Assembly (NCBI GenBank): GCA_041599855.1
Contig: JBFILE010000001.1
Coordinates: 1-35,863, forward strand
DNA: 35,863 nt
Direction of reading: 5' to 3'
From: Thermoplasmatota archaeon
Lineage (GTDB): Archaea; Thermoplasmatota; SW-10-69-26; JACQPN01; JAJPHT01
This document shows, in pieces, positions 13,180 through 32,218 of the stretch. The notes beneath the pieces are model-generated. The model saw only the letters and a list, made by a program, of their open reading frames with translations, did not search any database and was not told the DNA's origin. How positions within the stretch are numbered: the stretch's first letter is position 1; each line of letters starts with the position of its first letter. The position numbers were made by a program, and so were the translations under genes.

Positions 13180-13899
13180 ATGCCTGCAACCCTGTCCACG
13201 ACGGGGATCTCCGGCCTCGATGCTCAACTTGGCGGCGGGGTCCCCCGAGGATCCACGATCCTGCTCCTGTCGGAGCCAGGCAACGCCATCTCCCTTTTCT
13301 CGGAGCAGTTCGCAGGTGGCGGGCTCATGGTGAATGATCCGGTCACGTACATCGAGATGGATCGCCCGCCTGTTGGCCTTCGGGACAGGATCCTCGCGTT
13401 CAAGCAGGGGAACGGGACCCAACCCCAGCTCGACGTCCACGACGGGTACTCGAGCCAGTTTGCCATCGCGCGGACCGCAGCGAAGCAACCGGGCGTCCTC
13501 GGGATGAAGCGGGAGGACGTGTTCAACACGGCCATCAAGGCCGCCATGAGCGCGGGACAGAATTATCGCCTCGTCATCGAGAGCCTCAGTGGATTCACGC
13601 GCCCCGAGAACGAGGCCAGCGTCGTCGAGTTCGTCCGTAACCTCAGCTTCATCGGCCAGGAATACGGGGGCATGCACATGATCTCCCTCGTGAAGGGCCT
13701 CCACAGCCCCCAGTTCGAGACCCAGTTGCGCCATCTCGCAACAGGTGTCCTCGAGGTCGGGTCCGAGAAGAAGGGGTTCGGGATCTACTCGTACCTCATC
13801 GTCTCGAAGATGCTGAACGTCCGGGATCCGGTCCGCATGCTCCTCTTCAAGGAGACGGACAAGGGATTGTGGCTGGAATCCACGAAGCGGGTGTTCTGA
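13180..13899 (+). CDS. KaiC/RecA-superfamily, ArlH(FlaH)-like protein with a degenerate Walker A motif
   Basis: 239 aa. TGISGLDAQLGGGVPRGSTILLLSEPGNAISLFSEQFA aligns to the KaiC/ArlH pattern tGIpgLDelLgGGlprGs..li.GppGtGKT. Walker-B-like YRLVIESLSGF is present. The P-loop reads S-E-P-G-N-A-I-S and has no lysine. Confidence 0.7.
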   Translation: MPATLSTTGISGLDAQLGGGVPRGSTILLLSEPGNAISLFSEQFAGGGLMVNDPVTYIEMDRPPVGLRDRILAFKQGNGTQPQLDVHDGYSSQFAIARTAAKQPGVLGMKREDVFNTAIKAAMSAGQNYRLVIESLSGFTRPENEASVVEFVRNLSFIGQEYGGMHMISLVKGLHSPQFETQLRHLATGVLEVGSEKKGFGIYSYLIVSKMLNVRDPVRMLLFKETDKGLWLESTKRVF

Positions 13900-13966
13900 T
13901 CCGTGCGGAGGCGGGCGTACTGCTCGCCGTCAGCGGTAAATTGCCCCCTTGGCTCTTCCCGTGCCT

Positions 13967-13978: not shown

Positions 13979-13999
13979 TCTTGGCGAGCAGGGGTCTGG

Positions 14000-15163
14000 A
14001 TGTCTGCGGGGTCTGCCAACAACGCATCAGTCTCCCGGCCCCGAATGCCGGCGAGCCATCCGCGCGGAACCATGTTCCGATGGCGGAGCGACGACGGCGT
14101 GAGTCCCGTCATCGGCATGATCATGATCCTCGCCATCTCCGTGGTCGGCGTGAGTGCCGTCCTCGTGTGGGGCCTACCCGCGATCGAATCCATGAAGGAG
14201 CAGGTCGAGTACAAGAGCGTCCAGAACCAGTTCGACGAACTGGATGCGACCGTGCGCGAGCTCGTTGCCGGCACCGCCGGCAAGACCGCGAAACGCTGGC
14301 AACCCTCGCTCTCCCGCGGCGGCATCACGATCGAAGCCAACACGGAACGGTGGCTCGTCGCCACCGACCGCGACGCGAGCTACAATTTCACGTACATCGA
14401 ATTCGTGGACGCCGACAACGCCCTGAAGATCGTGAACCACGGGGCCTCATCCGTGACCATCATGGTGAACGCGTCGCTCGTCGATGGGGCAAGCGAAACC
14501 CTGCTCAACGTGTCGGCGGTTTCCGGATCCTCCATTCCCATGACGACGGCGGGCGCCGTCACGATTGCCAGTGGCGCATCCCAGGAATTCTGGACCTACA
14601 CGACCGTGGGTGTCGCGCGAAGCCACTACGAAGGGACATTCCATTTCGAGATCACGGACTCCACGACCAGCCAGACGGTCGGCGAAGCGTGGATCGTGGA
14701 CACGGGAGCCATCCACTACAAGCTCATCGGCGCCGCCCAACCGAGGCACGTGTACAGTTCCAACGGCGCCATCATCCCGGGCCAGGGCGACGGGTTCTTC
14801 GTGGACAACACGCCGCCCATCCCCGCGCCGCGCACGAGCGCCGGAAGCCACCGGTTCTTCATGCGCACCGTCCAGTTCAACGGCACCGGGTCGTTCTCGG
14901 GTGAAGCCCGCTTCGACGTTCTGTTCAGCCTCTATTCCACCGCGACCCTGTCCGACGAGACGGGCGTGCCCCGGATCAAGATCTACGCGACCGGGAACCT
15001 CACGAACGCGTGGCACACATTCTTCCTCGACGAAGCCCGCGGGTACAACTTCACAACGGTGACCGAGACGGTGGGGAGCGAAGGGCGCACCTACCTGGAA
15101 TACGAATACTCGGGCGGCATGGTGTTCACCCTCGTCCACAGCGTGATCACGGCAAGCACTTGA
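14000..15163 (+). CDS. Archaeal type IV prepilin-like protein (Pilin_N / DUF1628-type N-terminus), ~365-390 aa
   Basis: RSDDGVSPVIGMIMILAISVVGVSAVLVWG is the classic Pilin_N signature (ddrGVSPVIGviLm.aIt). The mature part is beta-rich with 6 N-x-S/T sequons (NFT, NAS, NVS, NGT, NLT, NFT). Start is uncertain: ATG 14000 (fits the TATA spacing), 14045 or 14072 (MFRWRSDDGVSPVIG). TTG 13949 from the ORF track lies upstream of or within the promoter candidates. Confidence 0.7.
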   Translation: MSAGSANNASVSRPRMPASHPRGTMFRWRSDDGVSPVIGMIMILAISVVGVSAVLVWGLPAIESMKEQVEYKSVQNQFDELDATVRELVAGTAGKTAKRWQPSLSRGGITIEANTERWLVATDRDASYNFTYIEFVDADNALKIVNHGASSVTIMVNASLVDGASETLLNVSAVSGSSIPMTTAGAVTIASGASQEFWTYTTVGVARSHYEGTFHFEITDSTTSQTVGEAWIVDTGAIHYKLIGAAQPRHVYSSNGAIIPGQGDGFFVDNTPPIPAPRTSAGSHRFFMRTVQFNGTGSFSGEARFDVLFSLYSTATLSDETGVPRIKIYATGNLTNAWHTFFLDEARGYNFTTVTETVGSEGRTYLEYEYSGGMVFTLVHSVITAST

Positions 15164-15177
15164 CGGAGGATGATGAC

Positions 15178-15681
15178 ATGATCAAACGACGCTCGACAGG
15201 CATCCGCCGGAACGACTCAGGCGTGTCCGAGGTCATCGGTTTCCTCCTGATGTTCGTCATCTCGAGCTTCCTCCTCGTCATCGCCATGTCCACGTTCAAC
15301 AACTCGCAGGACACGAGCGAGGGCGTCGTGACCGCAGTCGAGATGAAGAGTGTCGCCGCGCGCGTCGCAAGCCGCGTCCTCGAAGCGTCCATCGTGGCGC
15401 AGGATTTCCCCAACGCCACCTACGAGATCCAGGTGGACCTGCCGACGCCTCCCAACGACCGCGACTACCGCGTGACACTCACCGCATCCTCGGTGGATGT
15501 GGACACGACGAAAGGCAGCGCCACGGCAACCACGACCACGTACAAGCTGGACGCGATCAACGACCTCGTGCTCTCCGGCGAAGTGTACAGCTACCACAAG
15601 ACCGCCGTCATCCGGTACGCCCCAGTGATCTCGGGCAGCACCCTGACGAAGACCATCACCCTCCTCCCCCTCCAGGACTGA
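15178..15681 (+). CDS. Small archaeal type IV prepilin-like protein (167 aa; candidate major subunit)
   Basis: MIKRRSTGIRRNDSGVSEVIGFLLMFVISSFLLVIAM: short basic n-region plus Pilin_N motif. GGAGGA lies 7 nt upstream of ATG 15178. Confidence 0.75.
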   Translation: MIKRRSTGIRRNDSGVSEVIGFLLMFVISSFLLVIAMSTFNNSQDTSEGVVTAVEMKSVAARVASRVLEASIVAQDFPNATYEIQVDLPTPPNDRDYRVTLTASSVDVDTTKGSATATTTTYKLDAINDLVLSGEVYSYHKTAVIRYAPVISGSTLTKTITLLPLQD

Positions 15682-15685: not shown

Positions 15686-18600
15686 ATGGAACGCTCGATC
15701 AATCTCCGGGAATTCATCCACGCGCTCCGGGACTCGAGCGCCGACGTCCCGCCCGCCCGACTCCTTGCGAACGCGCCCGATGCATGGGCCGCGCTCACGA
15801 CCGACGACCGCGCTGCGATCCTCGCCCATTTCGACATGGCCGACGTGGACGCCGACGCCCTGACCATCGCCATCCGCAAGGTCTCGGATGGACCGTCCAC
15901 GGTGGACAATGTCCGCGTGATCCTGTCATGGCCGGGAGACGACGCCGCGACCGACGGCCACGATTCCGGTGACCAGCGTGCCGACGGTGAAGAGGTTCCG
16001 GCGCAGGAAGGACTCCCGTCAACCGCCCACGGGGAACTGGAAGGTCCGCCTGTGGCGGAAGCCCTCGCCGACGACAGCGGAGAACCCGCCCCGGACCTGT
16101 CGCCCGACATGTCGCCCGGAATGCCGCTGGACGAAGCGCCGGACATGTCGCCCGGAATGCCGCGCGACGACGCGCCGGACATGGCCCCCGCGTCGGACGA
16201 AGGCCACGCCCCAATCGACACCGACCACTTCGCGTTCGACGAAACGACCACCGCCGAGGTCCTGCCGAACGAGGCCTCCGAGGATGGGGCCCAACCGGCC
16301 ACCTTCGAACATTTCGAGGCCCTGGCGGAAGACGCATCCGCCGAGGCCATGATGGCGGAGGGGTTGCCGGAGACCGATGACGCCGTCGAAATGGACGTGT
16401 CTGCGCCTTCCGACAGCGAACCATTCGCGGAATCCGCCCTCGTCCATGCCTCTCCCGATGAGCCGGTTTTCGTGACTGCGGAGGAAGTGCCGGGAACGGA
16501 ACTCGCGGGCCACGGCGTCCTCTCCCCGCCCGGGGCCCATGACCACGCCCCGGGCTACGCCGGTCCCGATTCAAACGCCTCGGCACCCGAGCCCTTCGAC
16601 GATCTCGACGCCATGACGGAAGAGCGGCAGGGCCCGACCGCCCTTGCGATCGTCGATGATGAACCGACCCTGGATGCCGACGCTGGACCCCTCGCCGAGG
16701 AGCCGGAACCGGTCGACCCGGAAACCGGAAGCGCAGCGGCGGAAGCGGGTGCTCCCGCGGACGCCGACACCGACGCCGAAGTCGGGGGCGAACTCCCCCC
16801 CGGCGAGGGCGATCCCTTCGAGGAACCGAAGAAGGGCCTCTTCGGAAAACTCTTCAAGAAAAAAGCTGCGGACGCATCCGATTCCGACGGGCCGATCACG
16901 GTCATCCCGCCCCTTGAGGCCCCCCTCCGCGAGATCGAGGTCTACCCGATCCAGGACCCCTACGCGTTCGTCCGCATCGCCTACGATGACAAGGCGCACG
17001 AGTACGTCTACGAGGTCCTTGAACCGCAGATGGATGAGCGGGAACAGAACATCCTCGAATTCGTCGAGGAGACCCTCGTCGATGTCATCGAGGTCGGCCT
17101 CGCAAAGCTCGGCATGAAGGCCGCCGCCGAGATGCTCACACGGAGCATCGACGAGATCATCTTCGACTACTCCATCGTCCTTTCCCCCAAGTCCAAGGAG
17201 AAGGTCGTGTACTACATCCTGAGGAATTTCCTCGGGTTCGGAAAACTCGACCCCATGATGCGGGACAGTGAGATCGAGGATATCTCGTGCGACGGACCCA
17301 ACATCCCGATCTTCGTGTACCACCGGAAGTACGAGTCGTTCCGCAGCACCATCATGTTCAATGATCATGACGAAGCGGATTCCTTCGTCATCCGGCTCGC
17401 CCAGCGGTCCGGGAAGCACATCTCGATCGCCGAACCCCTGCTCGATGCCACGCTCCCGGACGGGTCGCGTCTGAATGCGACGTTGTCCGACGAGGTTACC
17501 GCGAACGGGTCCACGTTCACCATCCGGAAGTTCAAGCCGGATCCGTTCTCCCCGCCTGACCTTGTCCGCTTCGGCACCATGAATGCCGACATCCTCGCGT
17601 ACTGGTGGCTTGCCGTCCAGAATGGCGCGAGCGCCATCTACGCCGGAGGGACGGCTTCCGGGAAGACGACATCGCTCAATGCGATCCTGCTCTTCATTCC
17701 CGCGCAGATGAAGATCGTATCGATCGAGGATACGCGTGAAGTGAACCTGCCGCACCCGAACTGGATCCCCGGTGTGACGCGATCCGGCTTCGGGCCCCGC
17801 GACTCCCACGGGCGACAAGCCGGTGAGATCGACATGTTCACGCTCCTGAAGGCGGCCCTCCGCCAGCGGCCGGAATACATCCTCGTGGGTGAAGTGCGTG
17901 GCGCCGAGGCGTACGCCCTCTTCCAGGCCATGGCCACGGGCCACACGGCCTACGGGACCATGCACGCGGACTCGGCGGAAAGCGTCATCCACCGGTTGGA
18001 ATCGAGCCCGATCTCCATCCCGCGGAGTCTCCTTGAAGCCCTCGACATCGTCTCCATCCAGATCCAGACCCGCATCGGGGAACGCCGCGTGCGCCGCACC
18101 AAGGAACTCATCGAGATCGTGGGACTCGACCCCCATACCCGGGAGATCCTCACGAACGAGGTGTTCTCGTGGCATCCCGCCACGGATGAATTCGAGTTCA
18201 GCGGCGTCTCGTACGTCCTTGAGCGCATCCAGATGGAGCGGAACATGAGCGCCCACGACATGCGCCTCGAATTCGACGACCGGAAGCTCGTCATCGACTG
18301 GCTCATCAAGAAGGAGATCAACGATTACCTCGAAGTCGCCCACGTGATCCAACGCTACTACAAGGAGAAGGACAAGCTCATGGAGGAGGTCCGCCGCGAC
18401 ATGGAGGACGCACCGGTGGCCGATGAGCCGATGGCGGCGGATGACGCGTCGGACGACGAGCCCTTCGAGTTCGACGCCACTCCCCCGGATCATGAGAACG
18501 TCCTCGAACGCGGCGACCATGACCTCCTCGAAGCCGGCGATCCGGACCGCCTCGAACCCGGGGACCCGGATCTCCTTGAAGCCGGGAACGGCGACCTCCT

Positions 18601-18838
18601 CGAAGCCGGGAACGGCGACCTCCTTGAGAGCGGCGGATTCACGGCCCTGCCGAGCGAGGTCCCGAGCCCCGAGGAATCCCTCCACCGGGGCGACGGGGAT
18701 TCCCCGGATGCCGAAGGCGGCGCGGACGCGGCAGATGCGACCGACGACCGCAGGGACCACGGCCTTGTGGCGCCGTTGAACAGGAAGAAGAACGGGTCGC
18801 CCGACGGCGAGAACGGGGAGGGCGAGCGTGGCGCTTAA
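15686..18838 (+). CDS. ArlI/FlaI/PilB-family type IV filament secretion ATPase, with a ~400-aa N-terminal extension and a ~130-aa acidic repeat-containing C-terminal tail
   Basis: The core starts near residue 400 (ITVIPPLEAPLREIEVYPIQDPYAFVRIAYDD...YEVLEP). IEDISCDGPN...; Walker A AGGTASGKTTSLNA; Walker B KIVSIEDTREV; PEYILVGEVRGAEA; His box GHTAYGTMHA. ATG is 4 nt after the stop of the preceding pilin gene. Confidence 0.85.
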   Translation: MERSINLREFIHALRDSSADVPPARLLANAPDAWAALTTDDRAAILAHFDMADVDADALTIAIRKVSDGPSTVDNVRVILSWPGDDAATDGHDSGDQRADGEEVPAQEGLPSTAHGELEGPPVAEALADDSGEPAPDLSPDMSPGMPLDEAPDMSPGMPRDDAPDMAPASDEGHAPIDTDHFAFDETTTAEVLPNEASEDGAQPATFEHFEALAEDASAEAMMAEGLPETDDAVEMDVSAPSDSEPFAESALVHASPDEPVFVTAEEVPGTELAGHGVLSPPGAHDHAPGYAGPDSNASAPEPFDDLDAMTEERQGPTALAIVDDEPTLDADAGPLAEEPEPVDPETGSAAAEAGAPADADTDAEVGGELPPGEGDPFEEPKKGLFGKLFKKKAADASDSDGPITVIPPLEAPLREIEVYPIQDPYAFVRIAYDDKAHEYVYEVLEPQMDEREQNILEFVEETLVDVIEVGLAKLGMKAAAEMLTRSIDEIIFDYSIVLSPKSKEKVVYYILRNFLGFGKLDPMMRDSEIEDISCDGPNIPIFVYHRKYESFRSTIMFNDHDEADSFVIRLAQRSGKHISIAEPLLDATLPDGSRLNATLSDEVTANGSTFTIRKFKPDPFSPPDLVRFGTMNADILAYWWLAVQNGASAIYAGGTASGKTTSLNAILLFIPAQMKIVSIEDTREVNLPHPNWIPGVTRSGFGPRDSHGRQAGEIDMFTLLKAALRQRPEYILVGEVRGAEAYALFQAMATGHTAYGTMHADSAESVIHRLESSPISIPRSLLEALDIVSIQIQTRIGERRVRRTKELIEIVGLDPHTREILTNEVFSWHPATDEFEFSGVSYVLERIQMERNMSAHDMRLEFDDRKLVIDWLIKKEINDYLEVAHVIQRYYKEKDKLMEEVRRDMEDAPVADEPMAADDASDDEPFEFDATPPDHENVLERGDHDLLEAGDPDRLEPGDPDLLEAGNGDLLEAGNGDLLESGGFTALPSEVPSPEESLHRGDGDSPDAEGGADAADATDDRRDHGLVAPLNRKKNGSPDGENGEGERGA
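16103..16200 (+). repeat. 36-nt in-frame tandem repeat in the ATPase N-terminal extension
   Basis: PDMSPGMPLDEA / PDMSPGMPRDDA / PDMAPASDEG. At the DNA level, ggacatgtcgcccggaatgccgc occurs twice. Confidence 0.8.
18515..18634 (+). repeat. Five 24-nt in-frame tandem repeats in the ATPase C-terminal tail
   Basis: DHDLLEAG / DPDRLEPG / DPDLLEAG / NGDLLEAG / NGDLLESG. gaagccgggaacggcgacctcct is duplicated exactly. Confidence 0.85.
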
Positions 18839-19703
18839 CGAGTTTCAGCGGGTATCGTACAAGATGTTCGGCGGCGCCGTCTCCAACATGGGGAACGTGG
18901 CCAAACTCAAGGACGACCTCAGGCAGGCCCACCTCGGCATCCGGGCGGAAGCGTTCCTAGCGACCAGCTTCGTGATCGCCGGCATATCGACACTCCTCAG
19001 TCTCGTCCTCGCGTTGCTCGCGTACACCATCCTCCTGCCCCTCGCAGGAATCGCACTGCCGCCCCTTGCCATCGTGGGCGTCATCATGTTCCCGATCTTC
19101 GTCGGCCTCATGGCCTACGTGTCCACGGTTGCCGGGCCCGCGTCCCGCGCCAAGGCGCGGTCCAAGGACATCGACATGAAGATCCCGTACGCGCTGAACT
19201 ACATCGCGGCAATGGCCAGCGCCGGGGTCCAGCTCGACGAGATGTTCCGGTCCCTTGCGAACCAGAAGATCTACGGGGAGTGCGCGCGGGAAGCCGAACG
19301 GCTGTACCGTGACATGGCCTACTTCGGACGCGATTCCGTGAGCGCCATGAAGCTCGCCATCGGACGGTCGCCGTCCGAGAAGTGGACGGAATTCCTCCAG
19401 GGCGCCATCACCACCGTCACGAGTGGCGGCGACCTGCAGGTGTACTTCCAGGCCAAGGCGCAGCGGTACATGTGGGAGAACCGCCAGGAACAGAAGGCCT
19501 TCGTCGAGATGATGGGGCTCATGGCGGAAACGTATGTGACCGCGTGTGTGGCCGGCCCCCTCTTCCTCATCGTCATGATGGCGATCATGGGCATGATGGG
19601 AGGCGGCGGACCCGGTCAACTGCTCCTCATCGTGTACGGGCTCCTGCCCATTGCGAATGCCGGTTTCGTCTTCGCCCTCCAGGCGATGACCCCGGAGGTG
19701 TGA
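18828..19703 (+). CDS. Type IV filament platform protein, single T2SSF domain (ArlJ/TadB-like half)
   Basis: N-terminal TM helices, a cytoplasmic T2SSF-like domain (IPYALNYIAAMASAGVQLDEMFRSLA...SAMKLAIGRSPSEKWTEFLQGAITTVTSGGDLQVYF), then 2 C-terminal TM helices. GTG start with GGGGAGGG 6 nt upstream. Overlaps the ATPase stop by 11 nt. Confidence 0.75.
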   Translation: MALNEFQRVSYKMFGGAVSNMGNVAKLKDDLRQAHLGIRAEAFLATSFVIAGISTLLSLVLALLAYTILLPLAGIALPPLAIVGVIMFPIFVGLMAYVSTVAGPASRAKARSKDIDMKIPYALNYIAAMASAGVQLDEMFRSLANQKIYGECAREAERLYRDMAYFGRDSVSAMKLAIGRSPSEKWTEFLQGAITTVTSGGDLQVYFQAKAQRYMWENRQEQKAFVEMMGLMAETYVTACVAGPLFLIVMMAIMGMMGGGGPGQLLLIVYGLLPIANAGFVFALQAMTPEV

Positions 19704-19706: not shown

Positions 19707-22319
19707 ATGAACGGGAACGCGAACCGGGGAGAAGCGCCGACCGAACCGCAACAGGACGCGCCGGAAGCGGGCCGCCTGCCACCCACGGGACTCCTCGCCG
19801 ACCCCCGGCGACTCGCAAGGATTGCGAAGATCATGGGATTCACCGCGGCGATCGTCGCGGTTTCCGCCGTCCTCGTGAGCCTGTTCGTGTCCCCCACGGG
19901 GGCTGTCCTCGTCCTTGGACTCGCACTCGCGATGGCCACCGTGCCGGTGGTCGCATTCGCCCTCGCACCCCTCCCGCAGGTGGACGAGGCGGACGAGGAA
20001 CTCGCGTTCCGGGGCGACCTGTTCCTCAACGGATACACGATCGTCCTGTCGATCGCGTTCCTGACCCTCGGGCTCATCAACGTGCTCGCGATCTTCGCCG
20101 CATTCGGGGCGTTCCTCGTCTTCGGCGATTTTGCCGAGAACTTCGTGAACCTGTTCGTGGTCGTCCTCGCGGGCCCCGTCGGACTCCTCGCCCTTGCCAT
20201 CCCGCTCGCGGCAACGTCCAACACGAAGGGCGCCCGACGCCTCAGCCGGCAGGCGCTCCAGGCAACGTGGATCACTCTCGGCGCGACCGCACTCCTCGGC
20301 GTCCTGACACTCGGGACGGCCTTCGGCGCCCTCGATGCCCTCGGCATCGGGTTCATGAAATCGTCGCGCGCGAGCTTCGTGCTCGCGTTCGCAGCCATCA
20401 CCGCGTACCTTGCGGCCCGGAACACGCTCCGCCTCCCGGACCTGAGGGCGGTCGCGGAATGGATCGAGCATGAGCCGCGGTTCCGTGATTCGAACATCCC
20501 GAAAGCCACGGTCATCGCGGCAAGCGCCCTCTCCGGCCTCGCCGTCATCCTCAGCCTCCTCGCCGGCTTCGGCGTGCTCCCGGAAACCACGGCCATCTAC
20601 GCCGTCGTGGGTGCCATCGCGACCATCCTCGTGGCCGCATTCTCCATGGGCGTGACCCACGTGGAGACCCGCCTCGAATTCGGGGAAGGCGTGGAGGGCG
20701 CGCGACACCTGCGCAAGCTCATCCTGGGCACACTCAGCGTCGCCCTCGGCCTCCTCGCACTTGTCCTTGCCATCGTGACCGGCCTCGCGTTCCTCGCGCA
20801 GGTGGCCAACGTCGCACTCTTCAAGGACCTGCTGCGCCTGTTCGTGGACAACCATCCGCTCATCCTCGCCCTGGCCCTCCTGCCGCTTCTTGCCACTGTG
20901 ATTGCGCGTGTCTACGTGCCCACGGACGTGAAGTACACGGAGCGCGCCAAGGCCCTGAGCGCCGTCCTCGTCACTGTCATCGCCGTCAGCACATTCTACG
21001 GTGGATTCATCGGAAGCGGCCTCGCCCAAGGCGCCGGCATCGAACTCTCGAATGCGGTCCTGATGCTCTCGACCGCGGTCATCGCGCTCACCCTGTTCGT
21101 CAAGATCCGTGCCCTCCTGCCCGGCATCGTCAGCATGATGCGGGAGCGCATCGACGCGAGCGCGGAAGCGGACACGACCACGAAGGAGACCATCCGACGG
21201 AACATGATCGCCACATACGTGGTGAGCACCGTGCTCCTCCTCGCGTTCACCGGCGTCATCGTGGCCGCGAGCCTCGGCGTCCTCCCCGTCCAGGAGGGCG
21301 TCGCCTTCGACCTCACGCTTTTCGGCGTCTTCGTCGGCGGCATCATCCTCCTCGTCGTCCTCGTGATGAGGTACTTCCAGGGCGTCAACATCGACCCCCA
21401 GTGGGCCAAGAAGCAGAAGGAGGAGGACATCGGGAAGAAGCGGCTCACGCCCGAGGAACTCAACCGGTACCTCATCCTCGGATTCAGCAGCGTCGTCGCG
21501 GTCACGCTGACCACGTACGGTGCCCTCGTCTACGCCGAGATCTTCAACGCCCTCGGCCCCATCGACCTCGAGAAGCAGCATGCGACCGACTTCTTCGTGT
21601 TCGCGCTCCTCCTCGGTCTCGGCCCGTACGGCTGGTACCAGAACAAGGAGGCTGCCCGCATGCGGGCCATCGACAGCAAGTTCCCGGAATTCCTCCGCGA
21701 CCTCGCAGAGAGCGAGCGCAGCGGGATGACCCTGACCCAGGCCGTCGTGACGGCGTCCAAGGGGAACTACGGGGCCCTCACCTGGGAAATCCGCAAGATG
21801 GGTGCCCAGATCGAGTGGGGCATCTCGTTCACCGAAGCCATCGAACGCTTCGCCAAACGCGTCCGCACGCCCCTCATCGAACGCACCGTGAGCCTCATCG
21901 TGGAAGCCTCGAATGCGGGAGGCAGCGTCATGGACGTCCTCTCGGCAGCGGCGGAGGACAGCCGCGAGATCCAGCTCATCCTGAAGGAACGGAAGGCCTC
22001 GATGAGCATCTACGTGATGATCATCTACGTGGCATTCTGCGTGTTCGTGGGCGTCGTCGCCATCCTGAACGCCATGTTCATCCCCGAGGTCGCAAAGGCC
22101 ATGGCGAACGCGGATGGTGTGAAGATCGGGGGCGTCACGTTCCAGAAGTTCGACGAGGGCGCGTTCAAGATCGTGTTCTTCCACGCCGCCATCATCCAGG
22201 GCCTCGGCGGCGGACTCGTGGCCGGAGTGATGGAGGGCGGAAAGCCCGTGAACGGGCTCAAGCACGCATTCATCATGATCATCATCGCATACGTGGTGTT
22301 CCGGTTCCTCCTGATCTGA
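19707..22319 (+). CDS. Type IV filament platform protein, second T2SSF domain (ArlJ/TadC-like half), fused to a ~580-aa polytopic N-terminal membrane domain
   Basis: About 17 hydrophobic helices by eye. Then FPEFLRDLAESERSGMTLTQAVVTASKGNYGALTWEIRKMGAQIEWGISFTEAIERFAKRVRTPLIERTVSLIVEASNAGGSVMDVL (T2SSF signature) and 3 more TM helices. GGAGGTG lies 7 nt upstream of the ATG. 3-nt gap after the previous gene. Confidence 0.75.
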   Translation: MNGNANRGEAPTEPQQDAPEAGRLPPTGLLADPRRLARIAKIMGFTAAIVAVSAVLVSLFVSPTGAVLVLGLALAMATVPVVAFALAPLPQVDEADEELAFRGDLFLNGYTIVLSIAFLTLGLINVLAIFAAFGAFLVFGDFAENFVNLFVVVLAGPVGLLALAIPLAATSNTKGARRLSRQALQATWITLGATALLGVLTLGTAFGALDALGIGFMKSSRASFVLAFAAITAYLAARNTLRLPDLRAVAEWIEHEPRFRDSNIPKATVIAASALSGLAVILSLLAGFGVLPETTAIYAVVGAIATILVAAFSMGVTHVETRLEFGEGVEGARHLRKLILGTLSVALGLLALVLAIVTGLAFLAQVANVALFKDLLRLFVDNHPLILALALLPLLATVIARVYVPTDVKYTERAKALSAVLVTVIAVSTFYGGFIGSGLAQGAGIELSNAVLMLSTAVIALTLFVKIRALLPGIVSMMRERIDASAEADTTTKETIRRNMIATYVVSTVLLLAFTGVIVAASLGVLPVQEGVAFDLTLFGVFVGGIILLVVLVMRYFQGVNIDPQWAKKQKEEDIGKKRLTPEELNRYLILGFSSVVAVTLTTYGALVYAEIFNALGPIDLEKQHATDFFVFALLLGLGPYGWYQNKEAARMRAIDSKFPEFLRDLAESERSGMTLTQAVVTASKGNYGALTWEIRKMGAQIEWGISFTEAIERFAKRVRTPLIERTVSLIVEASNAGGSVMDVLSAAAEDSREIQLILKERKASMSIYVMIIYVAFCVFVGVVAILNAMFIPEVAKAMANADGVKIGGVTFQKFDEGAFKIVFFHAAIIQGLGGGLVAGVMEGGKPVNGLKHAFIMIIIAYVVFRFLLI

Positions 22320-22555: not shown

Positions 22556-22567
22556 GTAAATAGGGAG
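22556..22567 (+). promoter_or_regulatory. TATA-box-like element (GTAAATAGGGAG)
   Basis: A/T-rich box plus GGGAG, 34-45 nt upstream of the TTG 22601 start, inside a 281-nt intergenic gap. Confidence 0.35.
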
Positions 22568-25192: not shown

Positions 25193-25830
25193 CGAATCGG
25201 ATCGGATTCGCGCGGGGGCGCGGGGGCGCGCGCCGCGGAACCCGGAACGGCCAAAGAGAACGGGGGAAATCAACCATCCGAATCAACAGCAATGAACCGG
25301 AACCACTCGATGATGCAGGCCACTTCCTGCTCCTGGCGGGGATCATCCTCGTCCTCGCGTTCACCGCGAGCGCCTACACCTACAGCCTTGTCACGGACCT
25401 GAATGCGTCCACGGCGCGGGACCAGGATGCCGGCCTCGTACCGGATTACCGGTTCATCCATGAGCACATGCGTGCCACCGTCCACTCGGGCACAAACAGC
25501 GATCTTTCCAACACGAGTGCCCTGGCACTCTTCGAATCCTCGGAAGCCACCATCCGCACCCTGGCCATCTCGCGCGGTCTCGAAGTGAGCCTCACCCTCG
25601 CCGGGAACAGTTCGGGCGCGGTCCGGGATGAGTATGACATCGGAGCCGGCGGCTGGGACTTCATCACCGATTATTTGGGAGCAACCCTGAGCGGCGATTA
25701 TGACGGCGGCAACGACGGCCTGCTGTGGCTGGGAGACTCCACGGGCCGCGTCCAGGCACTGGCGTATGAAATCCAGGTCCGGGACGACCGGATGACCGTG
25801 CAGGAAACCGTGATCCTCGCGGTGGATTAG
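25108..25830 (+). CDS. Small pilin-like protein (second N-terminal class); start codon unresolved
   Basis: ...NEPEPLDDAGH-FLLLAGIILVLAFTASAY aligns with the N-termini of the 22601, 26082 and 31025 proteins. The only canonical in-frame start upstream of this motif is ATG 25108. That start overlaps the previous gene by 85 nt and gives a ~70-aa basic leader. Confidence 0.55.
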   Translation: MALPGHGRECRRGKHVLERSVGHGHAHLTNRIGFARGRGGARRGTRNGQRERGKSTIRINSNEPEPLDDAGHFLLLAGIILVLAFTASAYTYSLVTDLNASTARDQDAGLVPDYRFIHEHMRATVHSGTNSDLSNTSALALFESSEATIRTLAISRGLEVSLTLAGNSSGAVRDEYDIGAGGWDFITDYLGATLSGDYDGGNDGLLWLGDSTGRVQALAYEIQVRDDRMTVQETVILAVD

Positions 25831-25993: not shown

Positions 25994-26007
25994 TTAAATA
26001 AGGGAAG
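25994..26007 (+). promoter_or_regulatory. TATA-box-like element (TTAAATAAGGGAAG)
   Basis: Best TATA match in the window. If it is real, the GTG at 26007 cannot be the start, and ATG 26082 is the first start downstream of the expected TSS. Confidence 0.4.
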
Positions 26008-26081: not shown

Positions 26082-29000
26082 ATGGGCGACGCAGGGAACA
26101 TCCACGTACTTGAAGCGATCCTCATCGGGATTGTCATGGTTGGTGCCATCAGCTTCGTCATCACGTTCGACGCGCCCACCACGACCACCGAACCGGAGCG
26201 TCGCGCCCTCGAGGAATCCGGGACGGACGCATTGAACATCATCTACGAGACCCCGCTCACCGATGTCCGATACGGCAACAACACATTGTCCAAGTTCATC
26301 GCCCTCGCCCTCCAGGGGAATACCGGACCCTTGAGCACGCGATTGGAGGAACTCCTCCCACCGGCGACCGCCTACAACGTCTACATCAACAACGGCTACG
26401 GGTCGCTGCCCGTGTACGTGAGCCATGAACCGTCCGGTGAGACCGTCACGTCCTCGAAACTCCTCGAACCGAAATGGACGTACGTGTTCACGGAACGCTC
26501 GCACTTCGTCACGTCGACCCCCACCAGTCTTGGGGTGTATGCGTTGCCCGTGTACAACTCGAACCCCGTCGATGATGGCGGTGTGCCCCTCGCCGTCCAC
26601 TTCTCGGGAATCATCCGCGACAGCGGCAGGACCTTCAACCTCACCTCGTACTATTCCACGATCCAGGGTGGCCCCGGGTCGATCACCACCAACGTCGGGC
26701 TGCATCTCCTGAACTCCGAAGGCGAAGCCATCACCCTCGTCGACCGGTCCTCGACGGACAACACGACCTACTACGTGGGCTACGAGGACGTGGCATCGTA
26801 CGGCCTCCCGACGGGAACGAAACTCATCATCCAGATCCCCCGGGGCTTCGACGTCACCGTGACCGCTGCCGAGAACGAGGACTGGACGATCCTCGAGACC
26901 GTGACCGGCAACTCCACGGGCGGCCGCATCGTCGCGGAACTCGCATCCACACTGAACCCCACGAAAGGCCATTTCGTGTTCCACATGGACAACGTCGTCG
27001 ACCTCTACGATTTCCACCAACTCGACATGCGCCTCGCCGGCACCGTCCAAGGCCGTGCGGAGGCCGTGATCCAGGTCCGGGATTCACCCGTCCCGACAGG
27101 CGGCGACTTCCATGGCGTGTACGCGTCCATCCCGAAACCCATGGGGAACGGCGAAGCCAACCAGTGGCTCGTCGGGTTCCTGAATCCGCGGAGCCTGATC
27201 ACGACGGCGAACGCGACACTCCTTGCCGGACTCGACCCGGATGACCCCGAAATCCAGGCGTCATCCCGGTCGATCACCCTCACCCACGTCCAGATCCGAC
27301 AGCCGGAAGGGAAATCCCTTTTCTCCGGCGTGAGCGTCCTGAATGGCGAGCCCGGGTGGTCCGTCACGTCCGCGTCGCGCCTCGACTGGACGGGGGAGCT
27401 GAACCTGACCTCGAATTCCATGGAGGAATGGACGCTGCAGGTCACCGGCACCGGAACCGGCACCCGCCGGGAGATCCGGAACTACGTGAACGTGGACGCC
27501 AACGTCGGATCCCACACGGAGACCCTCACCCGCCGCATCCTGCCTGCCGTATTCTACGACAATGTGCTCCCCGAAGGCGCGGTGCTGCCGTTCACCGGGT
27601 ACGAAACGACCGTCGGCAACGGGTACGCCCTCACCACGAACGCCATCCACCGCGGCGTCAACATCCCGGGATCCTGGCACTACAACATCACGCCGGTCGC
27701 GATCGAGCGCGACAACCTCAACCTCGTGAACATCACGCTCGAGGATACCCTCGTCCCCATCGGTTCGAGCGCCTACGTGAATGTGGACAACCACAACCTG
27801 CTCCTCACCCTCGCGGACCTCGGCATCCCCGCGACGACCACGTTCCGCGTGTATGCACCCTACGGTCTCGACAACCACACGGCTATCGAGACCTCATCCA
27901 TCACCGAGGGCGATGTCATGTCGTCCGGCGTTGCGAAGCTCCTCGTCCGGGATGTGAACGCCGACGGCGTCCAGGACGTCATCGTCGCCACCACAACCAA
28001 CAAGATCTTCGTCCTCGACGGCCGGACCGGCAGCAAGATGAGCGGGTACCAGTTGGCGCTCGATTCCTATCTGGAGGCCCAGGGATTGCCCACCGCGAAC
28101 ATGGGTGACCTGTCGATCATGACCGCGGCCCAGATCGACGGTGACACCGTGTATCTCCTGGGCATGGCGCAAGGGAAGCCGAACGTCTTCGCCATCAATG
28201 CGGACTTCACCGTCCGTTGGGCCCAGAGCACGTCCGCATCCTACGCAACCTACGAAGTGCGCGGATACACGGGGATCCCCGCCACCTTCGACGGGTTCGA
28301 CATCACGGCCATCGATGCCTCCGCGGACGTGAGCGGCGACGGGATCGCAGACGTGCTCGCGGCCGACTCGAACGGCATCGTCTTCGCATTCAACGGAACC
28401 ACGGGCGACCTCGTCCCGTCCTGGATCTACGACACCTCGGCCGAACGGGCTCTCGTCCGGGGCGGCGTCATCGGACAGGCGGCGACCGACGGTTGGTTCG
28501 TCACCACGGGCTCGGGCAGCAGTGTCGGACTGTCGCAACCGATCAACCTGACCGCGGGCACATACACGACGGACCCGGGCGCAGCGCTCACCGCGGAACT
28601 CCAGAAACCGTACGTGGACAACCGGAACCCCGGTCTTGTGGCCATCGGCCCGAACCGCGAAACACTCTGGTTCGTGAACGGTGGAAGTTTCGATGTGATC
28701 GACGCCGCCGACATCGACAATGACGGAGTCACGGATTTCGTGGGCGGTGCAGCGGACGGGTTCGTCTATGCCTACAACGGTACCCAATCCTCATTCCCGC
28801 TCTACGGCGAAATGTTCGCCACGGGAACCGAGATCGTGGACGTGGCTTGGCTGGATGCGGACACGGGATGGTCCGTGAGCAATGACGGGTACTTCATGTT
28901 CACGACAGACGGGTGGACGACACGGACGTACTACATGGACGAAGTGGCCGCGTACTATGCGTTCCCGGGTGCGAACACCTTGAGCTTCGCTGACGCGAAC

Positions 29001-31025
29001 ACGGGGTACGTGGCGGGCGATGCGGGGACCATGTGGAAGACGGAGACCGGAGGCACCACCTTCGGCGCCACCGCCTACCTGATCAAGGTCTGGATCCCCG
29101 GGGTCGGATACACGGCGACCCTTCCGGGGACCGGCGAAGTGGGACGGGATTTCGAGGACATGCACGCCTTCGACCCGTACACCGTGCTCACGGTGGGGAC
29201 CGTCTGCCCGAACTGCAACGGCCGGGCAACCGTCATCGGAACCTATGATGGCGGAACCAACTGGAAGGACGCGGAATGGTCCGGAGACCCCATCTCGAAG
29301 ACGCTCCACCGGATCATCGTGGTGGACCCGTTGAATGTGATCGTGGTGGGTCAGGACGGAGCCGTCGGGCACGGGTTCCGTGAATCCGACCAGACATGGA
29401 CGTTCACGAAATTGACCAGCGTGGCCGGCGGGGAAACCCTGTACGGCGGCTGGTTCCGTGACGTGACCACGGGCTGGGTCGTGGGCGAAAGCGGCGCCCT
29501 CTACAAGACCACCGACAGCGGCGCATCATGGTCGAAGATCACGGTTCCCACGAACCGGACGCTCCAGGACATCGATTTCCTTGATCCCGCAAAGGGACGC
29601 AACGGGGAATGGGGCGTCCTCGTCGGGGACGACAGCGTGTACATGGAGACCTACGACGGCGGCGCCACGTGGAACCTCCTGCCCCCGTACGCCCTCACGG
29701 ACTACAACCGCGTCAACGTGCTCGAGAACGACGTGGCGAACATCGCGGGCGGGAACACGACCACCCGCGCCTTTGCGCAGACCCACGCATACATGCCCGA
29801 ATCCGTGTTCCAGACCCACAACCTGAACACCCTCGCCGACGGATTCTACACGGACATCACCATCGTCACGGACCACCGGTACGCGGGCGCATCCACGACC
29901 ATCACGATGGAAGCCAGCGTCGACGGCACGAACTGGTTCCCCCTCGACCCGGAGCTCGCAGACGGCATCTACACCGGCACGTTCGGGAACGATTCGTTCT
30001 CGTCCCAGTATGTCGGCTCGGACCTCCACGTGCGGTTCACGCTCGGCGTCGACATCTCCCTGAACCAGAAGTCGTTCCGCGTGAATTCGTTCGCAATCGC
30101 CGCCGATTACGCCATCGGACAATCCACCGGCCAATGGACGGACACGTTCCTCGTGAACGCGGCCAACGCCGGCAAGGTGGACACGGCTGCCACGACTGCG
30201 GACTACAACGCCACGTACGGCCACATCAAGTCGGCCCTGCAGAACCGGATGTGGACGCTCCACGTGGACGGTGCCGTGAACGACCTCGCCATCGTGGCGG
30301 ACATGGACGGGGATGGCGGCATGGACGTGATCATCGGCATCGGTGAAACCCTGTCCGCGGCAAACCTCAGCGCCCTCGGCATCCCCGCAGGCCTCGTCGC
30401 GGATCAACAGAACCGGGTCATGGCATTCAACGGAACGAGTGGCCGTGGCCTGTGGGTGTCGCCGGAATTGCCGGGACCCGTCGTGTTCGTCCGATCCGCC
30501 CACCACGCCCACGCATACGACAGCGTGCCGGACGTGGCCGCCATCGTGCGCATGGAACCCGCGGGCGCCGGCAATTACGATCTCCTGTACTATCTGGACG
30601 GCCTGGACGGAAGCATTCTCGGCGACCCGGTGAACCTCACGATGCCCGTCACCGGGATCGAGGTCGGCGAACTGAAGGCATCGTCCCTCGGGAATGAACT
30701 GGCGATCGGCACATCGCCGCCGAGCACGGTCACACGTCCCGGCTACGCGTACACCTATCACGTCCCGACGGAGCCCGAACTCCTGTGGCGGACGAATCCC
30801 AGTTTCAAGGGCGTGTACTCGTTCACCTACGAGGTCGCCCGGAACAGCCTGTTCGGCGTGTACCCGGTCGAAATTGAAGTGTCGTGGACCACGGGGGCGG
30901 GGGTCGCCCTTGCCCAGCGTTCCCTCACGTACTTCGTGGTGACTCCGCCCAACGGCGCCATGCCCACGAGCCCCATCTACAACATCGAACTCGTCACGTG
31001 GTTCCGGGAGTGGGATCTCGAGTGA
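26082..31025 (+). CDS. Giant (1647 aa) pilin-like surface protein with FG-GAP/VCBS-like and BNR(Asp-box)/Ycf48-like beta-propeller regions
   Basis: N-terminus MGDAGN-IHVLEAILIGIVMVGAISFVITF. FG-GAP-like Ca-binding repeats: DVNADGVQDVIVA...FVLDGRTG (27951), DVSGDGIADVLAA...FAFNGTTG (28326), DIDNDGVTDFVGG...YAYNGT (28712), DMDGDGGMDVIIG...MAFNGTSG (30299). Asp-box / Ycf48-like repeats: TYDGGTNWKD (29241), TTDSGASWSKI (29508), TYDGGATWNLL (29649), plus GW.V(G/S)..G motifs. Many N-x-S/T sequons. Confidence 0.75.
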   Translation: MGDAGNIHVLEAILIGIVMVGAISFVITFDAPTTTTEPERRALEESGTDALNIIYETPLTDVRYGNNTLSKFIALALQGNTGPLSTRLEELLPPATAYNVYINNGYGSLPVYVSHEPSGETVTSSKLLEPKWTYVFTERSHFVTSTPTSLGVYALPVYNSNPVDDGGVPLAVHFSGIIRDSGRTFNLTSYYSTIQGGPGSITTNVGLHLLNSEGEAITLVDRSSTDNTTYYVGYEDVASYGLPTGTKLIIQIPRGFDVTVTAAENEDWTILETVTGNSTGGRIVAELASTLNPTKGHFVFHMDNVVDLYDFHQLDMRLAGTVQGRAEAVIQVRDSPVPTGGDFHGVYASIPKPMGNGEANQWLVGFLNPRSLITTANATLLAGLDPDDPEIQASSRSITLTHVQIRQPEGKSLFSGVSVLNGEPGWSVTSASRLDWTGELNLTSNSMEEWTLQVTGTGTGTRREIRNYVNVDANVGSHTETLTRRILPAVFYDNVLPEGAVLPFTGYETTVGNGYALTTNAIHRGVNIPGSWHYNITPVAIERDNLNLVNITLEDTLVPIGSSAYVNVDNHNLLLTLADLGIPATTTFRVYAPYGLDNHTAIETSSITEGDVMSSGVAKLLVRDVNADGVQDVIVATTTNKIFVLDGRTGSKMSGYQLALDSYLEAQGLPTANMGDLSIMTAAQIDGDTVYLLGMAQGKPNVFAINADFTVRWAQSTSASYATYEVRGYTGIPATFDGFDITAIDASADVSGDGIADVLAADSNGIVFAFNGTTGDLVPSWIYDTSAERALVRGGVIGQAATDGWFVTTGSGSSVGLSQPINLTAGTYTTDPGAALTAELQKPYVDNRNPGLVAIGPNRETLWFVNGGSFDVIDAADIDNDGVTDFVGGAADGFVYAYNGTQSSFPLYGEMFATGTEIVDVAWLDADTGWSVSNDGYFMFTTDGWTTRTYYMDEVAAYYAFPGANTLSFADANTGYVAGDAGTMWKTETGGTTFGATAYLIKVWIPGVGYTATLPGTGEVGRDFEDMHAFDPYTVLTVGTVCPNCNGRATVIGTYDGGTNWKDAEWSGDPISKTLHRIIVVDPLNVIVVGQDGAVGHGFRESDQTWTFTKLTSVAGGETLYGGWFRDVTTGWVVGESGALYKTTDSGASWSKITVPTNRTLQDIDFLDPAKGRNGEWGVLVGDDSVYMETYDGGATWNLLPPYALTDYNRVNVLENDVANIAGGNTTTRAFAQTHAYMPESVFQTHNLNTLADGFYTDITIVTDHRYAGASTTITMEASVDGTNWFPLDPELADGIYTGTFGNDSFSSQYVGSDLHVRFTLGVDISLNQKSFRVNSFAIAADYAIGQSTGQWTDTFLVNAANAGKVDTAATTADYNATYGHIKSALQNRMWTLHVDGAVNDLAIVADMDGDGGMDVIIGIGETLSAANLSALGIPAGLVADQQNRVMAFNGTSGRGLWVSPELPGPVVFVRSAHHAHAYDSVPDVAAIVRMEPAGAGNYDLLYYLDGLDGSILGDPVNLTMPVTGIEVGELKASSLGNELAIGTSPPSTVTRPGYAYTYHVPTEPELLWRTNPSFKGVYSFTYEVARNSLFGVYPVEIEVSWTTGAGVALAQRSLTYFVVTPPNGAMPTSPIYNIELVTWFREWDLE

Positions 31026-32218
31026 TGCGTCGCCGTTCCCTCCTTGGGCGCGATGAGGGAAACCTCTACGCCTTGGAAGCACTCGTGGTGATCACGATCC
31101 TTGCCGCCAACCTTGCATTCGTCATGAGCCTCGACCACCCCAGCAACAACATGGAAGGCACGCGGGTCGACCTCAACCTCGCGGCACGGGACAGCCTCGT
31201 CCTCCTTGAGCGCGCCGTCGGGGACGATCCGGTGTTCGCGAACGACGCGGCCCGCCAGTATGTGACGCAGGCGTTGTACGGGGATCCCGTGAACCTGTCC
31301 CGGAAACTCACCAGCCTCCTGCCGGCGGGCGCTCGCCACAGCGTGTACCTGGACAATGGTCTCGCGACCCGGGAGCTGATCAAGGGTCCCGGCCCCGCGA
31401 AGGAACGGGTGACTGCCCAGGCCGGGTTCAGTTCGAACTGGGCGACGACGCTCATCGTTCCCGACTTCGAGGTGCACTCCGCCACTGCCGGCCGCGTGAC
31501 GTTCACGACCCTTCCCGTGTTCCACGGCCGTGTCCTGTCAACCGCGTCGGTGCCGGTCGAAATCGCGGATGGTTCGGATCAGAACCTGACCACGAGCCTC
31601 GGGAACGGATTCGTGGAAGGCGTTGTGACACCTCTGCCTTCGGCCGGGTCGCCCCAGGCCAACGTGACCTTGGCGTACAAGGATGAATTGCTCGCCGGCC
31701 GCGCGAAGTGGACCCTTGGTGCGGCCGGTGCCGAGGACTCACTCCTCGTTGCCACCCAGTACCTGTCACGCAGCGGATTGAATGCGAGCGCGGTCACCCT
31801 CGACACGGCGGTGACGAGGCCCGGCGACACGGTCACGGTGGCGTATGATTTCACGGCGCTTGAAACCGCATTGGGCACCAATGTCGTCCCGGGCTCGTTC
31901 GCCGTGAACGTGAGCCTCGTTGCGCCAACCCCGCCACCCACCAATGCCACACCATCGTATTACGCGACCGCGTGGACCGCCTCGGCCACCACCACTTCAG
32001 GCACGTTGGATCTCGACATCCCGTTCGACACGTTGTTCGGCGTCCACCTCGTCGATGTGCGGTTGTCGTACACGTTGACGAACGGCGGCGCCACCGAGAT
32101 CGAGCAGGCTGCGCACCTCGTGGAACGTCTCGACGTGGCGTTCAAGGACGGCACGGAGGCGCCCCTGAATCCGGGGTACCGCATCGTGCTTGAGGTCTGG
32201 TTCGACGACTGGCTGTGA
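31025..32218 (+). CDS. Pilin-like protein (397 aa), translationally coupled to the giant protein
   Basis: MRRRSLLGRDEGN-LYALEALVVITILAANLAFVM. The ATG overlaps the upstream TGA (gTGATGc). The mature part is beta-rich with no domain I recognise. Confidence 0.65.
   Translation: MRRRSLLGRDEGNLYALEALVVITILAANLAFVMSLDHPSNNMEGTRVDLNLAARDSLVLLERAVGDDPVFANDAARQYVTQALYGDPVNLSRKLTSLLPAGARHSVYLDNGLATRELIKGPGPAKERVTAQAGFSSNWATTLIVPDFEVHSATAGRVTFTTLPVFHGRVLSTASVPVEIADGSDQNLTTSLGNGFVEGVVTPLPSAGSPQANVTLAYKDELLAGRAKWTLGAAGAEDSLLVATQYLSRSGLNASAVTLDTAVTRPGDTVTVAYDFTALETALGTNVVPGSFAVNVSLVAPTPPPTNATPSYYATAWTASATTTSGTLDLDIPFDTLFGVHLVDVRLSYTLTNGGATEIEQAAHLVERLDVAFKDGTEAPLNPGYRIVLEVWFDDWL

Follow-up and report, generated by a model that had tools for sequence, protein, structure and literature searches.

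The DNA analysed here, which we refer to as the window, is a stretch of 35,863 bp (~65% G+C) from contig JBFILE010000001.1 of a Thermoplasmatota archaeon (assembly GCA_041599855.1). Between positions 13180 and 32218 it carries ten genes on the plus strand, g1 to g10, encoding a KaiC-fold protein, an assembly ATPase, a platform in two parts and several proteins with prepilin-like N-termini, which together probably specify a type IV pilus-like filament system (Table 1). An earlier reading made from the DNA letters (hereafter the sequence-only reading) had proposed ten co-directional genes, and the open reading frame (ORF) listing and the translations recover all of them at the coordinates it gave. 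Four junctions are as tight as that reading had described: a gap of 4 nucleotides (nt) between g3 and g4 (15681/15686), an overlap of 11 nt between g4 and g5 (18838/18828), a gap of 3 nt between g5 and g6 (19703/19707), and a TGATG overlap of 1 nt between g9 and g10 at 31025. The overlap between the ATPase gene (PilB) and the first platform gene (PilC1) also occurs in relatives, with 11 nt in locus L001 and 14 nt in locus L003.

Table 1 Features of the filament gene cluster in the window (aa, amino acids; FN3, fibronectin type III domain).
Feature	Coordinates	Strand	Description
g0	10354..12138	+	594 aa, single N-terminal hydrophobic segment; upstream of TauE
TATA-like box	13135..13146	+	A/T-rich, ~35 nt 5' of g1 ATG; putative promoter element
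g1	13180..13899	+	single-domain KaiC/RAD55-fold protein with inactivated motifs
TATA-like box	13937..13944	+	5' of g2; putative promoter element
g2	14000..15163	+	387 aa, prepilin-like, DUF7289 family
g3	15178..15681	+	167 aa, prepilin-like, DUF7266 family
g4	15686..18838	+	1050 aa, PilB/GspE-type assembly ATPase
g5	18828..19703	+	291 aa, first PilC/TadC platform half (PilC1)
g6	19707..22319	+	870 aa, second platform half (PilC2)
TATA-like box	22557..22566	+	~40 nt 5' of g7 TTG; putative promoter element
g7	22601..25192	+	863 aa, pilin-headed, DUF7261-like N-domain, six FN3
g8	25108..25830	+	small paralogue of g7 N-domain, DUF7261-like; start uncertain
TATA-like box	25994..26003	+	5' of g9; putative promoter element
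g9	26082..31025	+	1647 aa, pilin-headed, beta-propeller regions
g10	31025..32218	+	397 aa, g9 paralogue without propellers

The assembly ATPase of the cluster is g4, which matches T2SSE with 113.9 bits (Pfam), has PilB3-type flanking domains, and keeps an intact Walker A motif (GGTASGKT). The greatly extended ATPase that the sequence-only reading had noticed is real: a conserved N-domain of ~85 aa is followed by an acidic disordered linker of ~320 aa (residues 86-403, 26% D/E), the core (~404-905), and an acidic repeat tail (30% D/E). In-frame tandem repeats lie inside the acidic extensions, at 16101-16190 (36 bp x2.5) and 18501-18624 (24 bp x5.2), and are consistent with recent repeat expansion as the source of the disordered regions. 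The orthologues, of 602-926 aa, share the first ~80 residues and have acidic extensions that are shorter or absent. The disordered acidic extension looks lineage-specific. A homology search with full-length g4 gave 5 matches, low-complexity words having probably swamped the candidate list, and the sole named relative in that search was a 1355-aa ATPase of Halorubrum ejinorense. Compared with structures in the PDB, g4 scores 455 bits with Archaeoglobus fulgidus GspE (2OAP, 511 aa) versus 282 bits with Sulfolobus acidocaldarius FlaI.

The platform is divided between g5 and g6, each with one T2SSF domain. That of g5 (63.1 bits) aligns with positions 14-249 of the 555-position ArlJ profile, i.e. 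the N-terminal half, and that of g6, at residues 662-787, matches the C-terminal half of the ArlJ/TadC models. We could rule out a sequencing frameshift as the origin of this division, since six related loci show the same split, with a g5-like half of 291-293 aa. Upstream of its T2SSF domain g6 has an N-terminal region of ~600 residues with about 15-20 hydrophobic segments, indicating a polytopic protein, and no Pfam family matches residues 1-620. Among 1.84 billion proteins, this extension is found in 16 representative clusters (E <= 1e-3), of which those long enough for near full length are mostly ~760-880 aa. The platform is therefore both split and expanded, as had been proposed, and the polytopic extension looks lineage-specific.

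The product of g1 matches KaiC (PF06745) with 54 bits (Pfam), and its AlphaFold2 model, built from 80 homologues, has a predicted local distance difference test score (pLDDT) of 93.7. The best Foldseek matches of this model are SSO2452, PH0284, PH0186 and KaiC-CI. FlaH (4YDS) ranks only 33rd with a TM-score of 0.72, and is no closer in fold to g1 than other single-domain KaiC-like proteins. The P-loop, described as dead in the sequence-only reading, is indeed degenerate: the GxxGxGK[ST] consensus is replaced by SEPGNAIS, which aligns with GGPGTGKT of PH0284, and the catalytic EE of PH0284 aligns with D-R in g1. The Walker A Lys occurs in 0 of 120 g1 homologues, and D-R in place of the catalytic EE is near-invariant across the same set (n=120). 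Judged by these motifs, g1 is a conserved pseudo-ATPase, whose family-wide loss of the Walker A Lys looks lineage-specific. A distant KaiC-like homologue (36% identity) does not adjoin pilus genes. Of the initial label "KaiC/ArlH-like", the fold is thus retained and membership in the ArlH family is not, with scores of 20-30 bits on the ArlH/FlaH models against cut-offs of 194-215.

The presence in one locus of a KaiC-fold protein, a FlaI-family hexameric ATPase and a FlaJ/TadC platform recalls the ArlH-ArlI-ArlJ core of the archaellum, and one may consider that the cluster is a divergent archaellum in which g1 is ArlH, g4 is ArlI, g5 and g6 together are ArlJ, and g2 and g3 are archaellins. The ArlI equivalog model (NF058587) is even the best NCBIfam match of g4, and g5 and g6 do match ArlJ models. 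Nevertheless, all these matches stay below the cut-offs, with 410.6 bits versus 550 for g4 and with 80 and 63 bits versus 550 for g5 and g6, and the ArlH models fail on g1 as indicated above. The PilB of a Halorubrum pilus locus scores about equally on the ArlI model (396 bits, also below 550), so ~400 bits is the level of a non-archaellar relative. In addition, the interaction of ArlH with ArlI is reported to be nucleotide-dependent (PMC5019145), and neither the Walker A lysine nor the catalytic Glu pair is left in g1. The gene order is also different from that of an archaellum locus, with the pilin genes g2 and g3 interposed between g1 and g4, a separation of ArlH-like and ArlI-like genes that had been pointed out before.

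The missing subunits weigh further against an archaellum. No archaellin (PF01917) was detected by Pfam among the ten cluster proteins or the flank ORFs, and neither ArlC/D/E/X nor ArlF/G was found in the window with Pfam and NCBIfam, the space being filled by other genes. Four archaellum components are absent from the locus, whereas all seven are reported to be universal in archaellated archaea (PMC4858521). Nor did we detect a member of the peptidase A24 family in the cluster or in its flank ORFs; this is ordinary, because the prepilin peptidase of A. fulgidus stands alone among housekeeping genes (Table S4 of PMC4858521). All of these absences had been anticipated by the sequence-only reading, which had also stated that this is no canonical archaellum. 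With failing equivalog models and absent subunits, we reject the archaellum identity, which we regard as effectively refuted.

The remaining products of the cluster resemble prepilins. Each of g2, g3, g7, g8, g9 and g10 has a single hydrophobic segment, located at the N-terminus and preceded by a D-x-G motif (DDG/VS, DSG/VS, DSG/NM, DAG/HF, DAG/NI and DEG/NL, where the slash marks the putative cleavage position). Orthologues in relatives have the canonical haloarchaeal form, e.g. DDRG/QLMMLAGIV (R-G/Q). The pilin-like hydrophobic N-termini announced for g7 to g10, as well as the giant multi-domain adhesin-like proteins among them, are thus borne out.

The two subunits encoded upstream of the ATPase gene each match a Pfam family. 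The g2 product, with a PilA-like N-terminus (VSPVIG), matches DUF7289 with 43.6 bits (cut-off 27), and besides 14000, positions 14045 and 14072 are possible starts of its gene; orthologues are found at the equivalent position in L001, L003, L004, L007, L008, L009 and L011. The g3 product, beginning with RRNDSG/VSEVIG followed by the hydrophobic segment, matches DUF7266 with 27.7 bits, just above the cut-off of 27.6, and its L004 orthologue does so with 39.7 bits. As the smallest subunit, g3 is a candidate core filament subunit. Both proteins had been taken for Pilin_N prepilins; their prepilin-like character stands, g2 shows a weak Pilin_N score of 18.4 bits, below the cut-off of 25.2, and g3 has no match to Pilin_N (PF07790) in Pfam.

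The four subunits encoded after the platform genes form two pairs. The first comprises g7, which has fn3 matches in 6 stretches (157.6 bits) behind an N-domain of ~200 aa with a DUF7261 match of 20 bits, below the cut-off, and g8, for which no Pfam family was found. The g7 N-domain can be aligned to g8 as well as to the small g8-like genes found in L004 and L008, and an FN3-bearing g7 is common only to the closest relative, L001, whose orthologue also has FN3. The most plausible reading of g7 is a duplicated subunit of the g8 type to which FN3 repeats were added. The start of g8 is less clear: between 25108 and the hydrophobic segment there is no in-frame ATG, GTG or TTG, and with a start at ATG 25108 the gene would overlap g7 by 85 nt and its product would have a leader of 68 aa, the leaders of orthologues being short. 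Translation of g8 may thus begin at 25108 or at a non-canonical codon, and an assembly error is another possible cause of the missing start codon.

The second pair consists of g9 and g10. In g9, Pfam indicates FG-GAP-like and BNR/Ycf48-like beta-propeller matches, with Ycf48/HCF136 of the PDB matching residues 1130-1221, between a DUF7288/7262-like N-domain (sub-threshold) and a conserved C-terminal tail. Homologues that span the whole of g9 (1688-1726 aa) exist at the equivalent position in L004 and L008, with ~25% identity over residues 3-1644. The g10 product, which has no Pfam family, keeps the g9 N-domain and C-terminal tail and matches the g9 family and the g10-like genes of L004 and L008 (blastp/tblastn, alignment). 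The tail carries a motif, PxYx3Lx2W[FYL]x[DE]W with 1-3 residues after it, in all six family proteins examined, those of the window (30960-31022 and 32150-32215) as well as the L004 and L008 homologues. A search with full-length g10 gave 1 match, hence no deep alignment, and its single-sequence AlphaFold2 model was discarded (pLDDT 38). All in all, the adhesin-like pilin-headed proteins with FN3 or beta-propeller domains look lineage-specific.

An eleventh member is probably encoded by g0, on the other side of the TauE gene and beyond the range (13180-32218) given in the sequence-only reading. Its product has no Pfam match and shows a hydrophobic segment at residues 15-33 after SDDGG, and its C-terminal ~180 aa match the product of the gene directly 3' of the g10-like gene in L008 (15008-17506, E 1e-7) and L004 (19647-21734, E 3e-6). 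It is because of this match that we count eleven members as probable, g0 having been displaced across TauE, a proposal for which this similarity is weak evidence.

Related loci come almost all from metagenome-assembled genomes (MAGs) labelled "Thermoplasmatota/Thermoplasmata archaeon"; scans with the PilC2 alignment gave 5 loci in the genome collection and 2 in the metagenome collection. L005 equals L003, L012 equals L004, and L013 closely resembles L008, so that the conservation concerns a handful of lineages. The order KaiC-like, DUF7289, DUF7266, PilB, PilC1 (291-293 aa), PilC2 (827-863 aa) is observed in L001, L003/L005, L004/L012, L007 and L011, and L009 ends after the 7266-like gene. The conservation of gene order, which the sequence-only reading had listed as a check, is thus seen for the core from the KaiC-like gene to PilC2 in most of the related MAG loci recovered. 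A divergent TauE gene lies upstream in the window, L001, L003/L005, L009 and L011, and a same-strand TauE gene in L008. Two of the MAGs, those of L004 (JAJPHT010000022.1) and L006 (JAIVGT010000171.1), are labelled "Proteobacteria bacterium" and "Halobacteriales archaeon", which are probably binning or labelling errors.

The downstream part of the cluster is more variable, with a different 679-aa gene in L011 and FN3 only in the window and L001, which raises the question of whether g7 to g10 belong to the system at all. They could be unrelated surface-protein genes that happen to lie beside a pilus module formed by g1 to g6, their N-termini being ordinary signal anchors. The separate TATA-like boxes before g7 and g9 would fit such a view, and so would the sub-threshold Pfam links of g7 to g10 to pilin families. 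Nevertheless, a small g8-like gene directly follows PilC2 in L004, L007, L008, L011 and L013; a g9-like gene comes next in L004, L008 and L013, where it is cut by the contig end, and g10-like and g0-like genes lie further downstream in L004 and L008. Furthermore, the N-termini of g7 to g10 share the D-x-G and helix pattern with g2 and g3, in relatives in the canonical form given above, and the DUF7261 and DUF7288 families are found inside a Halorubrum pilin operon. We consider a chance association of two unrelated modules quite improbable.

The TATA-like boxes themselves are unusual in this DNA: the window contains only 11 A/T runs of >=6 nt, and 4 of them are in the gaps before g1, g2, g7 and g9. 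If these four boxes act as TATA boxes, their distribution suggests about four transcription units, g1, g2-g6, g7-g8 and g9-g10. Their positions also guided the choice of start codons. TTG 22601 is favoured for g7 because no other in-frame start codon comes between it and the box at 22557..22566, and ATG 26082 would be preferred to GTG 26007 for g9 because of the position of the box at 25994..26003.

In order to place the cluster among known systems, we compared it with the archaeal pilus classes catalogued by Makarova, Koonin and Albers in 2016 (PMC4858521). In this catalogue, the euryarchaeal clade 2 includes a second type of organisation, typified by the Haloferax volcanii PilB4 locus, which has its own set of pilins, "two tadC like genes" in many loci, and an association with the KaiC family; the halobacterial clade-2 ATPases have extra N- and C-terminal regions. 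Table S4 of the same work lists a "RAD55 ... inactivated" gene (arCOG01175) directly upstream of a clade-2 ATPase and TadC. This inactivated RAD55/ATPase/TadC arrangement lies beside a clade-2 pilin set in Archaeoglobus profundus, and it is repeated in Archaeoglobus sulfaticallidus, where an "Inactivated KaiC-like ATPase" is listed as well. The 511-aa ATPase of A. fulgidus is listed as Clade_2, and a clade-2 pilin-family member of this organism reaches 960 aa. We equate this ATPase with the chain of 2OAP, the best-scoring structure for g4, by length (511 aa) and organism only.

The window appears to share most of these features: a FlaI/VirB11-family ATPase with extensions, TadC and what may be a dedicated set of pilins of several families, TadC being in two genes (as in six related loci); an inactivated KaiC/RAD55-family gene, recognised in g1 by its fold and the Walker A loss; large pilin-family proteins; and a prepilin peptidase that would be encoded elsewhere. 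It differs from the PilB4-type loci (HVO_1160 locus, A. profundus, A. sulfaticallidus) by the presence of g2 and g3 between the KaiC-like gene and the ATPase gene, by the ~600-residue polytopic extension on the second TadC half, by subunits of up to 1647 aa with beta-propellers and FN3 arrays, and by the Thermoplasmatota host. For three cultured Thermoplasmata, the 2016 census counts no clade-2 system (PMC4858521).

A close haloarchaeal counterpart is locus L002 of Halorubrum ejinorense, organised as PilB-PilC-DUF7287-DUF7288-DUF7261-DUF7266-DUF7289. Its ATPase has the same architecture as g4 (PilB3_N, T2SSE, PilB3_C, with long extensions) and 39-40% identity over the core, and the pilin-like families of the cluster appear to match those of this PilB-PilC-pilin locus, with DUF7261 and DUF7288/7262 below threshold. 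In contrast to the window, its PilC is a single protein of 679 aa, it has no KaiC-like gene, and its pilins are small (161-332 aa) and encoded downstream of the machinery; conversely, no DUF7287 equivalent was identified in the window. A split platform also occurs in a type IV pilus of the Thermoplasmata, the CdiP system of Cuniculiplasma divulgatum (CdiPFa/CdiPFb). In the accessible part of its description (PMC12448462), this system differs by having two ATPases, by being compared with Aap, by having its pilins ~500 kb from the machinery, and by the fact that no KaiC-like gene is mentioned for the machinery operon.

From this comparison, we propose, with a probability of about 65%, that the cluster is a euryarchaeal clade-2 ("PilB4-type") type IV pilus-like adhesion filament system of an uncultured Thermoplasmatota-type archaeon. 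We regard the locus as an elaboration, specific to its lineage, of a euryarchaeal pilus class that was already catalogued in 2016, and not as a new kind of machine, which is at variance with the sequence-only reading, according to which it was a distinct machine that fits no catalogued pilus class. That reading had considered its claim lost if the architecture already belonged to a catalogued clade; this is largely what we find for the component families, which appear to match those of the clade-2 and Halorubrum loci, and not for the exact arrangement. Indeed, in the literature reached we found neither the exact ten- or eleven-gene arrangement nor the platform extension or the giant subunits, and searches on the DUF names returned nothing, those on Thermoplasmatota pili and adhesins nothing specific.

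Several observations weigh against this proposal. The placement of g4 in clade 2 rests on similarity scores and shared neighbours, and membership of g1 in arCOG01175 is putative. In L008 no KaiC-like gene is present at this position, TauE being followed directly by a g2-like pilin (L008 1-1400), so g1 may be dispensable, or may be encoded elsewhere in L008. In most of the D-x-G cleavage motifs, position -2 is not occupied by the basic residue that is canonical there, and no small (~70-130 aa) PilA-type major pilin is encoded in the window. Moreover, the family links of g7 to g10 are all below the Pfam gathering thresholds, the sub-threshold matches being to DUF7261 for g7 and g8-like proteins and to DUF7288/7262 for g9 and g10-like proteins (E 2e-4 to 6e-2). 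Profile comparison with hhalign of the g7/g8 and g9/g10 N-domains against single Halorubrum DUF7261, DUF7288 and DUF7287 sequences gave E-values of 0.002-0.1 and probabilities <=13%. We rejected the DUF7287 link for the cluster N-domains on these weak scores and keep the DUF7261 and DUF7288 links of g7 to g10 as leads, which are suggested by sequence similarity. Finally, for all members of this locus family, filament formation and adhesion are predictions made from the genes.

By homology with characterised type IV pilus and archaellum machines, the proposed clade-2 system might work as follows. The prepilin-like g2, g3 and g7 to g10, and probably g0, would be inserted in the membrane via their single N-terminal hydrophobic helix and cut, just behind the conserved Gly of D-x-G, by a prepilin peptidase whose gene would lie outside the cluster. 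The hexameric PilB-type g4 would then drive the helices into a filament through the platform formed by g5 and g6. The shaft would be made of small subunits, i.e. g3 and perhaps g2, or of a PilA-type pilin encoded in trans, and g7, g9, g10 and perhaps g0 would be minor or tip subunits whose exposed FN3 and beta-propeller domains attach to surfaces, polymers or other cells. As for g1, canonical binding and hydrolysis of ATP should be beyond it, and it most likely forms a non-enzymatic ring or adaptor on g4, in a position analogous to that of ArlH and without its nucleotide switch.

Fusion of a pilin module to large adhesive domains is also found in the modular type IV pilins of bacteria, such as PilB and PilC of Streptococcus sanguinis and large minor pseudopilins such as TadG, which act as minor or tip subunits. 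They belong to another domain of life, no sequence relationship is shown, and the proteins of the window, up to 1647 aa, are much larger.

The main rival model is motivated by the absence of a small major pilin from the window. In this model, no long pilus is made, and a short membrane-proximal stub anchors g7, g9, g10 and g0 as a surface layer that displays binding or enzyme modules, as proposed for sugar-binding proteins with class III signals in the Sulfolobus Bas system (bindosome). All the subunits are indeed large for pilins (mature size ~150 to 1640 aa), and most of the coding capacity is devoted to extracellular proteins of several domains that carry propeller and FN3 modules. Nevertheless, no Bas or Ups orthologue reaches the cut-off (BasE 183 versus 1000 bits, BasF 51 versus 1300 bits, UpsF 56 versus 400 bits), the models for the homologous clade-2 loci of halobacteria and Archaeoglobus are of pili that have their own major pilin (PMC4858521), and the major pilin may be encoded in trans, as PilA1-6 are with respect to PilB3C3 in H. 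volcanii (PMC4858521). Such a pseudopilus-like display system thus seems to us unlikely, and we favour the clade-2 adhesion filament.

The differences from the catalogued loci nevertheless leave room for a bolder hypothesis, which we advance with considerable doubt: the Thermoplasmatota loci could make up a separate subtype of archaeal type IV filament machine, not modelled before and defined by three traits. The first may be an obligately nucleotide-free KaiC-fold ring that replaces the ArlH/FleN-type regulator, and the second may be an enlarged platform, with a ~600-residue module of ~15 transmembrane segments restricted to ~16 protein clusters worldwide. The third may be filaments or stubs made largely of giant propeller-bearing pilin-headed proteins with the PxYx3Lx2W[FYL]x[DE]W tail. 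If this were true, the function would extend beyond simple adhesion, for instance to polymer capture or cell-cell contact in soil archaea.

To our knowledge, no surface appendages have been described experimentally for the uncultured Thermoplasmatota of soils and sediments, for which this locus family provides a concrete and conserved candidate adhesion machine. The family g1 belongs to also represents a natural experiment on the role of the KaiC/ArlH-fold partner of a filament ATPase after the loss of nucleotide binding. Together with the rare expanded platform protein, it offers leads for studying the structure and cell biology of archaeal type IV filaments, by which an existing class is refined and no new class is opened.

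The flanks of the cluster contain genes for ScpB, ScpA and SMC (minus strand), DUF599, MscS, PDH E1-alpha and TauE, and, downstream, an RnfC/Nuo51-like gene and a gene for a PKD-cupredoxin surface protein. No RNA family was found within the window with Rfam. The TauE/SafE-family permease gene (12189-13100, minus strand) is divergent from g1, which may be mere lineage synteny. The downstream 815-aa protein (33382-35829, minus strand), which combines a cupredoxin domain with six PKD domains, is large and probably a surface protein, without evident tie to the cluster. The ScpB-ScpA-SMC genes form a chromosome-condensation operon upstream (window 1-7100, minus strand), and a ScpB gene also lies near the L009 locus, a hint of wider conserved synteny. 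Between the start of the SMC gene and the DUF599 gene, at 6676-6778, we also observe a 30-bp unit repeated x3.4 (91% matches).

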